Notes under the pieces: model-generated
Databases searched by the model: none
Told to the model about the DNA's origin: nothing
What the model saw: the letters and a program-made list of their open reading frames with translations, nothing else
Shown: positions 12,146 through 18,842 of the stretch, in pieces
How the letters are laid out: the number at the start of each line of letters is the position of its first letter
How positions within the stretch are numbered: position 1 is the first letter of the stretch
Source: Cirrosporium novae-zelandiae
Lineage: Eukaryota
Length of the DNA: 20,000 bases
Assembly (NCBI GenBank): GCA_026023565.1
Contig: JAPETS010000007.1
Span: forward strand, 915,974 to 935,973
Direction of reading: 5' to 3'
Program-made: the position numbers and the translations under genes

Positions 12146-13542
12146 ATGTCCAGATCTTCGCCAGCTAGTGGACTCAATATCAAACAATTTGGATTAAGCG
12201 AAGTTTATCGCCCGGAGCATCCGCTTGTCGAGTATGTCCATTCTATTATCCATTTTTTACTACATATTTCGGAGAGAGCATAAAGCATGTGTCTATCATT
12301 TCATTCGTAACTTAAAGATTTATGACCGGAAATTTGCATCTAAATACTTGAACTCTTGCGCTTTGACTATGCGATGCCTAAAAATCATAAGGCATGATCC
12401 TTGAAGACATTGCTAACGGTTGCCTGGTTTTATAGTGTTGTCTTCGTCCATGGCCTCAACGGACATCCCGAGAAGACCTGGTCAACGAAAGATACCTTCT
12501 GGCCTAAAGATTTACTGCCGATAGCTGTTGAGGATACAAGAGCAAGAGTTTTAATGTATGGATATGATGCGAATGTAACAGCTTTTACAGATGGAACCTC
12601 GAAAGATCGAATCCACAATCATGCAGAACATCTTGTTGCTTCGTTATATGCCAATCGCTCTCTGCGAGAGAGACCAAAGGCTACTGAAAGACCAATTATA
12701 TTTGTGTGTCATTCCCTAGGAGGATTGGTAGTCAAAAGAGCTTTGATATACTCCAGTGGTCTCCATGTCAAGACGGCGCATTTGCGCTCTATTTATCTCT
12801 CGACATATGGCATCTTGTTCCTGGGCACTCCACACAAGGGTTCCGATATGGCGAAATGGGGTGCCATGTTGGAATCTATTTGCAGAGTTTCAATGCCGAC
12901 AAGTCTTGTCCATTCTCAACCACAGTTGCTTGAAGCATTGAAATCGAATAACGAGACCCTTCAGAACATTGATCGCCTTTTTGTAGACATGATGAGCAGA
13001 TATCACATATTTTTCTTTCACGAGGCTAAACCAAGCAGTTTAAAGATTGGCAAGAAATTCATCGTGGAAGAGGACTCCGCCGCTCCAACTCTCGAAGGCG
13101 TGGAGCGAATGGGAATCGAAGCAGATCACAGTCATATGTGTAAATTCGATGATGTCGATTCTCCTGGATATGAAGCTGTTGCAGAAGCCATCGTTCGTTA
13201 TGCCGAAGCAGCACCAAGCGTCATAGCACGTAGATGGAGGGAAGAACAAAAGCGTCGTTCAGACATGGCAAAGGCTGCGGCAATGGAAGCACTAGGAAGT
13301 ATGTTATCCCAAGTTCTGATTTGTGGTATTTGCAGGAGGTCTTCGTTATCACTAACAATCTTTTAGTTGATGTGACGGATCACCAATCTGCTTCCGAAGC
13401 TGCGCCCACGCCTTGGAATATATCTGAACCTGGCACTACTGGTAAGAAAAGAAGACCAACTCTACCTGCCCCTGACCACAGGAATGATCTGGATCAGTAT
13501 GAAGTTGAAGAACCTGAACCTGAATTTGTACGACGAACGTGA
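12146..13542 (+). CDS. Predicted short isoform of the same gene: hydrolase-only protein, 374 aa (exons 12146-12231, 12436-13298, 13367-13542)
   Basis: If the donor at 13442 is not used, exon 3 continues in frame as GKKRRPTLPAPDHRNDLDQYEVEEPEPEFVRRT to TGA at 13540-13542, followed by T/A-rich 3'-UTR-like sequence. Existence of this transcript is inferred, not shown. Confidence 0.5.
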
Positions 13543-16500
13543 TGGTTGTTCTAAATTGCCTACTTGCTTTACATACTTGATCTAGATCAGCCTATTTGTT
13601 CAGTTTTGCATTAAGCATACTAAAATTTTTACTTTACTATTGATATGTTAGGAGGTCAGTGTGCTGACCGGAATTCATGTTCGTAGGTAAAATAAAATAT
13701 TCTCCGAGCCCCGGCTCTACGCCTTCCTTGATTACTTCCAATATTCAGACCATTGCTTCAATTGAGCCTGATCCTTTGACGAGTGCCCCTCTGCTAGTCG
13801 CTCCCGATGGATTTCGTCCAAATGATGTATTCTTTGGAATGAATAGAGAGCTTGCGAAACTTCATAAGAAAATTTTTACATTAAGGAAAAGAGAAGTTGG
13901 AACATGCGCTGTCCTCATATGGTCAAGAACTGGAGCAGGCTCGGGAAAGACTCATTTGGCTAGACAATATGTCTTCACTCATCGCATGGATTTTCCCACT
14001 GGTACTTTCTGGGTTAACGCAAGGACGCGCGAATCCCTCTATAAATCTTATTGGGATATTGCACAACAGACTACGTTTCAGGACCTCCGCTCTTCGCCCA
14101 GTGGAACCAACCAGCAGATCGCTACAAATTTTATCGAAACTACCAAGAAGTGGTTTGAAAGCCGCGATAACTGGCTTCTTGTAATTGATGGTATTAGTCT
14201 TGAGACTGACAAAGATGTAGCCTTGCTACAAAGATTCCTGCCTGACAGCAAAAATAGCAGCCTTATCTACACTTCGCGTGACCGAAGCCTAGCTGGTATG
14301 CACCGTCTCCTTAATCCACTGGCTGTTAATGTAAAACCACTGGGAATAGAAGATGCTCGTGCACTCTTATTTCATGGTCTAGGCTTAAAACACCCGAATC
14401 AAGAGCATATCAAAAAGGCGACCGAAATCGTCCAGTACGTGGAATGTCTGCCACTAGCAATTCATGCAATCGCACATCGCCTCAACGCAACACGAAGACC
14501 GCTTGAAAAGTTTAATATCCTTTCTTATTCAACTGATGCAAGACTTGCCGTACTTTACCAGGGAATAATGCAAGATCTTTGGTCGTCCGGACACTATGAA
14601 GCACAGAGTCTAATTCATCTTCTCAGCTTTTACGACCACGAGGTTCCAGTAGCAATGCTGCAATTAGGAAAAAGGGCGTTGAAAGATTTGGAAATAGACA
14701 TACGATCCACCGAACATGGTGGGCTTCACAAGGACATGGAAACAACATTTGCAATTTTGATTAAATATGGCCTGATAGATCGCACGGCGATGAAGTATGA
14801 AACACCAGACCGCAGTGCGACAGGAAGTAGTCTGCACCAAAGCCTCGACAACTCCTCTACAGCGTCTGTTACCAGAACAATCGATATCCTCAAAACGCAT
14901 TCTGTTGTGCAAGGTTTCTTTCTCGACTCGCTGAAAGCTTCAGGCAATTTCTATGAATGGCTGAAAATTGCTACAAGAGTATTTTGCAGATCCTTTCAAA
15001 AGGCTACTTTGGATATTGAAGAAAGAGGAGGATCAGGACTGGTCAAAGATTATCGCGAATACGAGATCCATGGTGGCCGTTTGATGAGTCATTATCCAAA
15101 ATCTGCCAAAGTTATTCTGAAAGAGGACCTCCGCGAATACCAAACCCGGCTAGAAGCAGTCATGCACAAGATTAGCGAAGAGATCTCACGAGAAACCCCA
15201 CATTCGTCTCAAGAGAATGTACGTAGCCAGACATCCGTCTTTGATCGAACAAGCAGCATCTCTACGGGAGGACCTGATACCCCTGATAACATCAAGCATC
15301 TTTGGGACTCCACCCCTATCTTCGATGCAGATATGGTCCAAGTCGATTCACCTGGAAGTACTATTGACTTGGAGCACAGTATCAATCGAGGCAAGTTTCT
15401 GACAGCTCCTGTTAATGAAGATAAGGGGTACGAGTCCGAATGGGATGTTCCATCCGAAAAGGGAGGCAAGGAAAGTTTGTCAAATAGCATATCCGAGGAT
15501 TTAAAACGCTATTGGTTGCAACGATCCCGTCAGCCCAAGGACCTTGGCAGCTTCAGACCATCTCCTCTAAATACTCAAGTTACGAAGACCGTTGCATCTG
15601 GGGTACTAAACCGGTCACAGTCAGAACCAACCCAAGGGGTATCAGGAATATCACCTGCCGAAACTGTCCTTGCTGCGATGCGTCATGCAAGTCCTCCACC
15701 GACACGAGGTGGTCGCAAGGTCTCGCCTGGTAGCCATGGAGCTATGGGTTCCATTCGGCCGCTTGGGATCTCATCGCCTTTGAAAGAAGAACTTGAAGCT
15801 AGTGACCCGGCCTTACGCAATGCTAGGAATAAGTCCTCGCCAGCACTCACTCAAATAGCTCCGACCCATCACTCTTCTCCTAACTTCAGACCTTTGGATA
15901 TATACCCTACTTCAGCTCTCCCGGAAGTTTTGATTTCCGATGACCAACCCCACTACTTTCACCACATTCGTCACGCCTCTCACCCCCCACAACCACCACT
16001 TCCCATTGAAACAAACATTTCTATAAGTCGCCGACCGCGATCGTTTTCAAATTTTAATAGTCAACAATATCCTTACCCACCCGTCACTACCGCCGGGGTA
16101 CCAATTCAAAATCTGAATCAAACTGTTATGAATACGCATCCACTACCGTTTGTCATGCCAAGCGGATATACATCACAACCAATGAGCCGTGATCCATCTG
16201 GCGATCAAGCTCGCTTTTCACTTCCACAGTCGGAGCCCTATCCATTTCCACAAAACTTAGGAAGCCCACCAAATCTCAGCATTCCTCACGTGATGAATAG
16301 CAGGGAATCAAGCCACCTTACATTTGCTATTGGGGATTGGACCGATACACCTTCTTCTGGGGGTGTTGCGATGTCTCGCGACAATTCCGGCTCCGGGTCT
16401 GGGTACAGTAACGCAGAACTAGACCAACGTGGACGAGTTGGACGTCCAACACGTCACAGCATTATTGAAGCTCAGGAGCGACAGCAGAGAGATGCATTTA

Positions 16501-16682
16501 GACAACAGCACTCACAAGGCACCATTGGAATAGCAGGACAAGCGCCATATCCTAATATAAACATGATACCGACAGAAACAGATCCATTAGCCCTAGAAGC
16601 ATTACAAAGAGAGCTTTCACCAGAAGGAGAGAGGAACGGATTAGGAATTAACATCAGTGATAGCAGACTTGGCTCAGCATGA
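12146..16682 (+). CDS. NLR-like protein: N-terminal alpha/beta hydrolase (SesB/PGAP1/DUF676-like) + NB-ARC STAND NTPase + long disordered C-terminus ('LipA and NB-ARC domain' type), 1339 aa, 4 exons: 12146-12231, 12436-13298, 13367-13441, 13687-16682
   Basis: Hydrolase motifs DVVFVHGLNG, IIFVCHSLGG, FLGTPHKGS and ADHSHMCKF. NB-ARC motifs FFGMNREL, GAGSGKT, WLLVIDG, LIYTSRD, CLPLAI and KTHSVVQ. Introns GTATGT..GCTAAC..TAG (12232-12435), GTATGT..ACTAAC..TAG (13299-13366) and GTAAGA..GCTGAC..TAG (13442-13686) all preserve the frame (4020 nt). Confidence 0.88.
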
Positions 16683-17332: not shown

Positions 17333-18294
17333 CTATAAACTCGCTTTCCCCCTCCCCCTTACCCCTTCCTCCTCCTCCCCTTTATCCTCATCCACATCAT
17401 CATAATCGGGCACCTCCCCCACTTCCACCAAATCCACAACCATTATCCCCCCATATCCATTCAACCTCCTCCTCAACCTCCCACTAACCCCATAAACCCC
17501 CCTCCTAACCCGATTACTGCCCCCCAACGGTCTCAACCCCTCCAACCCCAACCAGGGATCAACCCTGATGCGATCCTCCCAAAACGCTTTTCTGGAAAAT
17601 AGGAAACTGTTTTGGGGGGGGATGTGGAGGGTTGCGACGGGTTGGAAGGGGTGGAAGGTTGGGGACCAGACTTTGCTAGCGGTTTCGGTTGGTTGGGTTG
17701 TGGGTTGGGTGGAAGGGGATTGGGGGGGTGGGGATTCTAGGAGTTGGAAGGAGAGGGTGTAAGTGGCTGGGTGGGTGGTGTGGAAGGTACGGAGGTGGGT
17801 GGAGAGGATGTTGGTTGGGGTTGTGGTTGTGGTTGAGTCGTTTGGGGATGGGGGGGGTACAGTTTCAGAAGCGAGGGATTTCTGAATTGGGGATTCGGGG
17901 GAGAGACGGTATTTAGCAACATAGTCACCAAAGCGGTATGGAGTCTGGCTGTAGTATGTCGTAGCTTCCAGCCACATATTTCTAACCTCATCGCGTGCCT
18001 TTTGGAGTGCTGTGTCTGTGCGCTCCTCCAGTGCTTTGTAGAGCGCGGGTTTGTCGGAGCCGTGTTTTAGACGGAGGGAGAGGATCTCGCGGGTTGTTTT
18101 TGCGTCCGAGAGCTCTAGGGCGGGCGTGCTGTTGAATTCTAGATCTTGCGTTGGGAGGGTTGGACTCGAGGGTGAGGGGGGAGAGAGTTTGGGGCCGTGG
18201 ACGTTGAAGATTTTCATGGCGAAGCCGCGGGGTTGGGGGATTCGGTCCTAGAGGGGCGGTGGGTGGGAGGGTTAGATTGGTGGGAGGTTTTTTT

Positions 18295-18330
<36 letters not shown>

Positions 18331-18842
18331 GCTGGGGAGGGGGGAGGGGTGGAAAGTGGGGAGATGAGCTGGGAAGAGGGGATGGATGGATAAGGATGTG
18401 ATGTCCATACATCAAGACCCGGGTCGCCTGGCTCGCTGCTGTAGCGACACACGACGGGATACTCGCCCCCGTGAGCGAACATGGTTTGCTTCAGGTGTTT
18501 GGGCAGGTCATCCGGGACGACAAGCGTGCCTTTCACGATGCCGTGAGTTCGTGCATGTGTTCCTGTGGCGATTAACGTCAGTCATATACAATTCATCAGC
18601 CATGTAATTGCTCCTGCTTGTAATAACAATGTTCAGTTTCGGTCAAGGTCTGTCTCACCGGTGTAACAATGCCGGTGGGTGTTGTATTGGACTTTCTGGA
18701 GCTTGTTTATTAGCTCCCCGATGGCTTTGATGTCTTCGGTCTCGTTTGGAGGGATCTTCTCGACGCCTTCGTCATCCCATCGCATGTAATGTCTATCTGC
18801 GAGGGGGGCGGGGTCATGGGTTTCCTTGTTGGTGTTATCCAT
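17333..18842 (-). CDS. Small catalase-like heme protein (catalase-related, y4iL-like subgroup), 416 aa, 3 exons: 18842-18659, 18562-18411, 18247-17333
   Basis: The spliced product has distal-His motif GTHARTHGIVKG, VCRYSSEPG, DDRIPQPRGFAMK, TQDLEFNS, YSQTPYRFGDYVAKY and the proximal-Tyr motif RPLGGSNRVRRGVY. Introns GTGAGA..ACTGAC..CAG (96 nt) and GTATGG..TCTAAC..TAG (163 nt) keep the frame. Confidence 0.88.
18297..18329. repeat. G33 homopolymer (C33 on the coding strand) inside intron 2 of the catalase-like gene
   Basis: Counted directly. It is preceded by a T9 run and surrounded by further G-runs. Confidence 0.9.

Follow-up and report, generated by a model that had tools for sequence, protein, structure and literature searches.

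A conserved, possibly translated peptide inside the intron between the hydrolase and NB-ARC exons of a fungal NLR-like gene

Two architectures are described for fungal NOD-like receptors (NLRs), a single protein that includes the effector (all-in-one) and an NLR accompanied by a separate effector gene. Here, we analyzed an NLR-like gene on the forward strand of a 20,000-nt stretch of Cirrosporium novae-zelandiae DNA (contig JAPETS010000007.1, positions 915,974 to 935,973; hereafter, the window). The gene consists of an alpha/beta hydrolase of the DUF676/SesB class fused to an NB-ARC domain, with a phase-1 intron (intron 3) in the linker between the two. The best-supported reading, which we consider reasonably probable, is that this single locus gives rise to two products, a free hydrolase of 374 amino acids (aa) with a short C-terminal tail encoded inside intron 3, and an NLR of 1339 aa.

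In plants, the TIR-NLR genes RPS4, tobacco N and RCT1 produce truncated isoforms via intron retention, and RPS4 needs both kinds of product (PMC4100160, available as excerpts). The locus is similar in that a full-length receptor and truncated isoforms are proposed to come from one NLR gene. Unlike these plant genes, it is fungal and has an N-terminal hydrolase instead of a TIR domain, the retained intron would encode a conserved terminal peptide, the cut would precede the NB-ARC domain, and the system is known here from sequence comparison alone.

In fungi, a SesB lipase with a sigma motif that adjoins an NLR was reportedly described by Daskalov in 2012. The HET-S/NWD2 system comprises a free effector with a short C-terminal motif beside an NLR (excerpts of PMC9815663). 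The short product proposed here resembles both in being a free effector with a short C-terminal motif beside an NLR, whereas effector and NLR are separate genes in those systems and would be products of one gene here. Moreover, the motifs of the known pairs form amyloid and are matched at the NLR N-terminus, whereas the tail found here is acidic, matches no Pfam family at E<=0.1 and is missing from the spliced NLR; the predicted local distance difference test (pLDDT) score of the equivalent tail in a homolog is low. For these reasons, classification as an amyloid-signalling effector/NLR pair was rejected.

NLRs of the sesB-like/NB-ARC/TPR type, such as Pa_2_10340 of Podospora, share the order of a hydrolase effector followed by NB-ARC (excerpts of PMC4986451). 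Unlike them, the gene described here has no detected TPR, ANK or WD repeat, its C-terminal half is serine/proline-rich and of low complexity, and it seems to be conserved as an ortholog in Eurotiomycetes, Lecanoromycetes and Xylobotryomycetes rather than being a fast-varying repertoire gene. Thus, of the features that define fungal NLRs (signal transduction ATPases with numerous domains, STAND, of the NB-ARC type), the NB-ARC domain with its P-loop and the N-terminal effector are present, and C-terminal repeats were not detected. Exitrons and alternative 5' splice sites are also comparable, as a coding-capable stretch between splice signals becomes exon or intron depending on splicing, and this stretch apparently stays open into the next exon in Aspergillus sections Flavi and Usti. 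Unlike in exitrons, the stretch in the window and in most relatives ends in a stop codon followed by ordinary intron sequence, and retention would truncate the protein rather than insert a segment. An exitron is stop-free and a multiple of three in length; intron 3, with 245 nt and a stop at 13540, is neither, and the same holds for 10 other sequences, so this classification was also rejected.

In the available excerpts of three sources on fungal NLRs (PMC4986451, PMC13449251 and PMC9815663), the only splicing feature mentioned is the micro-exons of Tuber. No report of an effector-only isoform or of such a tail was found in the literature searched, the coverage of which left out most subscription journals. 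The name 'LipA and NB-ARC domain protein', which the family bears in source records, appeared in the literature only in the gene lists of one study, as far as the search listing goes. A fungal NLR intron that encodes a conserved peptide and may be retained appears to be new, whereas NLR truncation by intron retention is already known from plants.

Conservation of the peptide inside intron 3

When intron 3 is spliced, the frame continues across the junction (G+GT) to give 1339 aa. Unspliced, it remains open for 33 sense codons (GKKRRPTLPAPDHRNDLDQYEVEEPEPEFVRRT) and ends at a TGA, giving 374 aa. The coordinates of the intron, its donor, branch and acceptor, the in-frame fusion and both protein lengths had been put forward in an initial annotation of the window and were recovered on rechecking, as was the position of the intron at the hydrolase/NB-ARC boundary, in the linker between the two Pfam domains. 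The earlier remark that this is the longest intron of the window holds against the two other introns of the gene, of 204 and 68 nt. The G+C content is 0.45 in 13442-13542 and 0.35 in 13543-13686, compared with 0.46 in the coding sequence, in agreement with the T/A-rich composition noted earlier after the read-through stop. The A/T-rich remainder could serve a short mRNA as its 3' untranslated region (UTR) or poly(A) region.

The open frame by itself is not beyond chance. A read-through of at least 33 codons occurred in 2670 of 20,000 shuffles of intron 3 and in 2961 of 20,000 random sequences composed like its 3' part (13-15%). The length of the intron and its 33-codon frame, both singled out by the initial annotation, are thus unremarkable in themselves, and the significance of the frame lies in its conservation in relatives, not in its being open.

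A scan of metagenome contigs yielded 67 loci, 30 of which contained both the hydrolase anchor and the P-loop. The strict form of the acidic motif was found between both anchors in 12 of these 30 loci (9 distinct sequences), and in all 12 the frame stops 2-14 codons past it. Looser inspection revealed further tail open reading frames (ORFs) with a degenerate motif and a terminal stop (L002, L004, L008/9/22, L023, L028, L032, L041 and L060). In the common layout, found in metagenome loci and database proteins spanning three fungal classes, the GGT-ARG donor is codon-aligned and leads into the in-frame peptide (LP[AS]P ... [YF]E[VI]EE[VP]); a stop follows within 2-19 codons, and after it come an unconserved remainder and a phase-1 acceptor. 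LP[AS]P is present in L001, L003, L005, L007, L012, L013 and L042 with synonymous codon variation, and the Y-E-V/I-E-E codons also vary synonymously between lineages. In 11 of 11 sequences, the G+C content of the ORF part exceeded that of the rest of the intron, with the drop at the stop. The basic KKRR patch, proposed earlier as resembling a nuclear localisation signal, is not conserved; relatives have GKEQLA, GRFQQA, GKMRA or GRASHL at this place, and KKRR was rejected as a conserved localisation feature. What is conserved is LP[AS]P, together with the acidic [YF]E[VI]EE[VP]. A further motif match, in L034, was dropped because it lies off-target in an RW helix at the hydrolase end.

The splice signals around the peptide are conserved as well. 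Codon-aligned GGT-AAG or GGT-AGG, 47-65 nt before the Y codon, was found in the window and in L001, L003, L005, L007, L012, L013 and L042, resulting in the phase-1 donors G/GTAAGA, GTAAGG, GTAGGT or GTAGGG (a slash marks a splice boundary). This donor is missing in L006 and L046, where other upstream candidates are present; GGT accounts for 70 of 321 Gly codons in the same genes. Introns with the GGT-ARG donor are 192-392 nt long. On the 3' side, we searched for the first acceptor in the NB-ARC frame with a CTRAY branch 8-45 nt upstream (hits at 13-37 nt), and it was in phase 1 in 32 of 34 loci, the exceptions being L023 and L054. Outside these 34, eight loci had no nearby intron or ended too early, and one had no such acceptor. 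The phase-1 donor/acceptor pair of intron 3 is shared by 10 further distinct sequences of relatives.

No phase-1 GT was found 3' of the motif in 11 distinct sequences. The GTs after the motif are all out of phase with the conserved acceptor, most of them without G at +5; in L042, the stretch from motif to stop contains none. Four of the 11 have a phase-1 GT 5' of the motif, all without G at +5, and inspection by eye of the window and L042 showed no phase-1 GC-AG donor after the motif. Since no phase-compatible donor follows it, the motif cannot be joined to the conserved acceptor and thereby enter the full-length mRNA. A role of the motif itself as a splice donor (GAG/GTA within YEVEE) was dismissed, as its Val codon is variable at the third base (GTA, GTT or GTC, or ATT for Ile).

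Selection could be compared in two pairs of loci, L001/L005 and L003/L007, L012/L013 being too similar to be informative. From donor to stop, the members of each pair have equal lengths and identities of 85/110 (77%) for L001/L005 and 77/101 (76%) for L003/L007. The remaining intron contains indels, and its identities are 47/85 (55%) and 105/218 (48%), respectively; over the final 60 nt of exon 3, identity is 52% and 72%. The differences at the three codon positions number [3,8,14] in L001/L005 and [2,5,16] in L003/L007, with ratios of nonsynonymous to synonymous substitution rates (dN/dS) of 0.38 and 0.09. The other two frames hold stops in most of these sequences, frame +1 being open in L003/L007 and the window. 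This pattern is that of a putatively translated C-terminal extension under protein-level purifying selection in the relatives. The comparative check suggested in the initial annotation (intron position, peptide, stop and dN/dS<1) was thus positive in relatives.

Annotated proteins also contain the peptide. A search with the exon 4 product listed 120 homologs, 54 of which carry the hydrolase, and [YFW][ETDQ][VIL][ED]E was found in the linker of 15 of these 54, including the window's own record. Aligned counterparts of the window peptide are LLPAPEDSVTLKDYEIEEP in Penicillium and SYEIEEPPEPAFVRQ in Aspergillus nanangensis, and a Penicillium full-length protein carries the linker motif LPAPEDSVTLKDYEIEEP. 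A search with the hydrolase exon for proteins of 157-503 aa gave 738 short homologs at E<=0.001, of which 120 were listed. Among those listed, 39, with lengths of 354-423 aa, end 3-19 aa past the motif, and 81, mostly shorter, do not contain it. The motif-ended short proteins include NCBI gene models of Cladophialophora carrionii, Penicillium oxalicum, P. ochrochloron, Aspergillus tamarii and Talaromyces marneffei, as well as many models from metagenome-assembled genomes (MAGs) of lichen fungi. Most models of the Teloschistales type from lichens finish with …N[ED]K[ED]MA or a close variant, …EKEMA being an ending shared among lichen-fungus models. Six Penicillium-like proteins and locus L042 all end three residues after EE.

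Databases disagree in their gene models of the family, presenting it as split, as fused with the motif or as fused without it. Sister species are annotated oppositely, the stretch from the G-R/G-K pair to a few residues past the motif being either kept or spliced out (P0061 versus P0083, P0077 and P0071; P0052 versus P0045). In T. marneffei, the tail terminates a 362-aa hydrolase (P0170), whose locus tag and that of a 1167-aa NB-ARC protein (P0091) are consecutive, and at least six further NCBI genome models are hydrolase-only.

Proposed products and competing explanations

In the proposed mechanism, splicing from G/GTAAGA (13442) to TAG/ (13686) would yield the 1339-aa full-length protein without the peptide. 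If the intron were retained, or if the transcript ended in its A/T-rich 3' part, the 33 extra codons would be translated, adding the tail (LPAP ... YEVEEP ...) up to the stop at 13540 and yielding the 374-aa free hydrolase. This supposes that an mRNA with the intron unspliced, or with a poly(A) site inside it, is produced and translated, that the tail acts as a short linear motif binding a partner protein in trans, and that the ratio of both products is regulated.

An AlphaFold2 model of the short homolog P0205 (39 aligned sequences) showed a well-folded hydrolase, no contact between tail and hydrolase, and a pLDDT below 50 nearly throughout tail residues 324-364, which suggests that the tail is disordered. 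Docking of the tail on the hydrolase is unsupported by this model; a low-confidence tail is no argument against binding in trans. In view of this low confidence, the tail was taken as a putative short linear motif acting on another protein.

If true, one widely conserved NLR-like gene would yield both of the architectures described for fungal NLRs, as a fungal parallel to the plant RPS4/N isoforms, and a specific regulatory step open to testing would be added to what is described for the 'LipA and NB-ARC' family. It would also mean that gene models of the family, the deposited one included, treat the region inconsistently, as spliced out, as exonic or as split into two genes. Conserved coding potential within introns can mislead gene predictors. 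A bolder version, which we regard as doubtful, is a self-contained two-component system in one gene, in which splicing picks either the all-in-one NLR or the free hydrolase and the acidic tail (LPxP ... YEVEEP) would be a handle for recruitment, inhibition or activation, possibly by the NLR from the same gene, kept since before the split of Xylobotryomycetes, Eurotiomycetes and Lecanoromycetes.

Several points weigh against two products from one locus. An mRNA that retained the intron would have a 3' UTR of about 3 kb and might undergo nonsense-mediated decay unless it was intronically polyadenylated. The deposited model of this very gene treats the peptide as an exon. Two metagenome loci, L010 (7709-8329) and L019 (1139-1660), have a linker without an intron and encode hydrolase, motif or remnant (WEIEEQ, or LLPAPGESPVEV) and NB-ARC in a single continuous ORF. 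The motif also occurs in annotated full-length proteins, namely in Chaetothyriales and in Aspergillus sections Flavi and Usti, and is therefore not tied everywhere to a free C-terminus. Within section Flavi, the existence of a second phase-1 donor past the motif is suggested by comparing the proteins of A. parasiticus (…EEPPEHLYAS/NTVPP) and A. pseudonomiae (…RIG/NIVPP) with a short model of A. tamarii that stops after …LYASKRF. Many of the unnamed short database entries may be plain genomic ORF calls, which prove the stop and not expression. Finally, the window lineage has no close relative in the set, and selection on its own copy would have to be read from the intact motif, frame and composition step. 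The earlier proposal that one locus encodes both architectures is supported by comparative conservation, and the truncation is not universal within the family, L010, L019 and some Aspergillus and Chaetothyriales proteins being without it. The conserved trait may be that the motif can be switched in or out, truncation being one of the outcomes, depending on the lineage.

The strongest competing explanation, which we still judge unlikely, is that the peptide is a constitutive exon, with the real intron located after the motif, so that all mRNAs carry the motif and the short form is an occasional unspliced transcript. It is the reading embodied in the gene's own record, P0001, retrieved with exon 4 at 100% identity, a hypothetical protein of 1347 aa from a MAG of C. 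novae-zelandiae (class Xylobotryomycetes). P0001 reads 13442-13527 as exon (…GKKRRPTLPAPDHRNDLDQYEVEEPEPEF) joined to TIASIEPD, and it differs from the 1339-aa model precisely in the coding status of the read-through peptide. The GTACGA at 13528 matches the phase of CAG/13749 and carries the conserved G at +5, and both the 15 motif-bearing proteins among the 54 listed and the continuous ORFs of L010 and L019 point in the same direction. However, no CTRAY branch was found 5-50 nt upstream of 13749, which lies in sequence that is coding in relatives, and no path equivalent to 13528-13748 was found in them. Exon 4 of L003, L007 and L012/13 opens with G-N-S-T at a strong acceptor, where conservation begins; its start corresponds to 13687 of the window and not to 13749. 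The absence of a conserved, in-phase donor after the motif described above also speaks against a constitutive exon, the sister loci L001 and L005 have possible post-motif phase-0 paths that are not homologous to each other, and the conserved upstream GGT-ARG codon pair would be left unexplained. Taken together, the comparison indicates that 13442-13686 is likely the productive intron and that 13528-13748 is probably a prediction artefact of intronic coding potential, at most a minor alternative.

We give a slightly lower probability to the explanation that the read-through is a relic in the window lineage, the motif working within the full-length protein elsewhere while the intron is here simply removed and any retained transcripts are noise cleared by nonsense-mediated decay. 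An open frame of this length is within chance, there is no close relative with which to measure selection on the window's own copy, and the tail of the modelled homolog has low confidence and no hydrolase contact, all of which would fit a relic. On the other side, the frame of the window copy is intact, LPAP and YEVEEP are retained in it and its G+C content drops at the stop, and the pairs of loci with the stop show strong purifying selection on a peptide that is barred from the full-length mRNA.

Two separate adjacent genes, a hydrolase gene ending at the 13540 stop and an NB-ARC gene with its own promoter from the in-frame ATG at 13677-13679, 10 nt before the acceptor, and no fused mRNA, would accord with annotations that split the locus, such as the T. 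marneffei pair, and with the hydrolase-only models, but this is very improbable, given that just 134 nt separate the stop from that ATG, that L003, L007 and L042 have no in-frame Met ahead of the NB-ARC anchor and annotated NB-ARC-only proteins of different genomes begin at non-homologous Met residues, both of which speak against a conserved second gene, that the phase-matched donor and acceptor with branch, conserved in 32 of 34 loci, would be purposeless, and that L010 and L019 are continuous fusions.

Gene structure and neighbouring features

The features of the gene are listed in Table 1. In Pfam searches, DUF676 (PF05057) matched exon 2 with 24.4 bits (cut-off 20.3) and NB-ARC (PF00931) matched exon 4 with 30.2 bits (cut-off 23.5), whereas none of the repeat families TPR, ANK and WD40 was found at E<=0.1 on the 997-aa exon 4 product. 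The sesB-like class was assigned through Pfam DUF676 and not through the sesB hidden Markov model of the authors of Dyrka 2014, who pooled sesB with alpha/beta-hydrolase Pfam hits; according to the same source, just 52% of fungal NLR C-termini receive a Pfam annotation (PMC4986451, excerpts).

Table 1 Features of the hydrolase/NB-ARC gene in the window
Feature	Position	Strand	Details
Exon 1	12146..12231	+	ATG at 12146; frame search; matches the N-terminus of deposited protein P0001 exactly
Intron 1	12232..12435	+	204 nt, GTATGT ... TAG; junction as in P0001
Exon 2, alpha/beta hydrolase domain (DUF676 / SesB-like class)	12436..13298	+	Pfam PF05057
Intron 2	13299..13366	+	68 nt; junction as in P0001
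Exon 3, poorly conserved linker	13367..13441	+	75 nt; last base is the first base of a GGT codon
Intron 3, phase 1 (likely productive)	13442..13686	+	245 nt; donor G/GTAAGA; branch CTGAC 13664-13668 in the context GCTGAC 13663-13668; acceptor TAG 13684-13686, junction TAG/GT
In-frame coding extension in intron 3 (putative)	13442..13542	+	33 codons from 13441; TGA 13540-13542
LPAP element of tail	13462..13473	+	Conserved in relatives
Acidic motif YEVEEP	13498..13515	+	Conserved in relatives
A/T-rich non-coding rest of intron 3	13543..13686	+	G+C 0.35
Intron of the deposited model (probable artefact)	13528..13748	+	GTACGA ... CAG; deduced from P0001; 13442-13527 kept as exon
Exon 4: rest of linker, NB-ARC, helical region, long S/P-rich tail	13687..16682	+	Stop codon 16680-16682
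NB-ARC Pfam match	about 13935-14486	+	Within exon 4
P-loop GAGSGKT	13932-13952	+	Within exon 4

Short open introns are common here, as intron 2 (13299-13366) likewise reads in frame through 22 of its 23 codons. Just inside exon 4, five bases past the acceptor, an AATAAA at 13691-13696 is a candidate poly(A) signal. Exon 4 opens with GTAA directly after TAG/ in the window, L003, L007, L012 and L013 (TAG/GTAAAA, GTAATT or GTAACT). This junction resembles a combined 3'/5' splice site; it likely reflects mere G-K or G-N codons, and its +5 base is not G.

The C-terminal region of about 500 residues (window about 15060-16679) is S/P-rich and of low complexity, which is unusual for an NLR. It keeps a few conserved islands in the family alignment, for example, the near-invariant positions around P0001 1184-1200 and 1268-1281. 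Downstream of the gene, the minus strand at 17333-18581 holds overlapping long ORFs with proline-rich low-complexity runs, suggesting a neighbouring gene.

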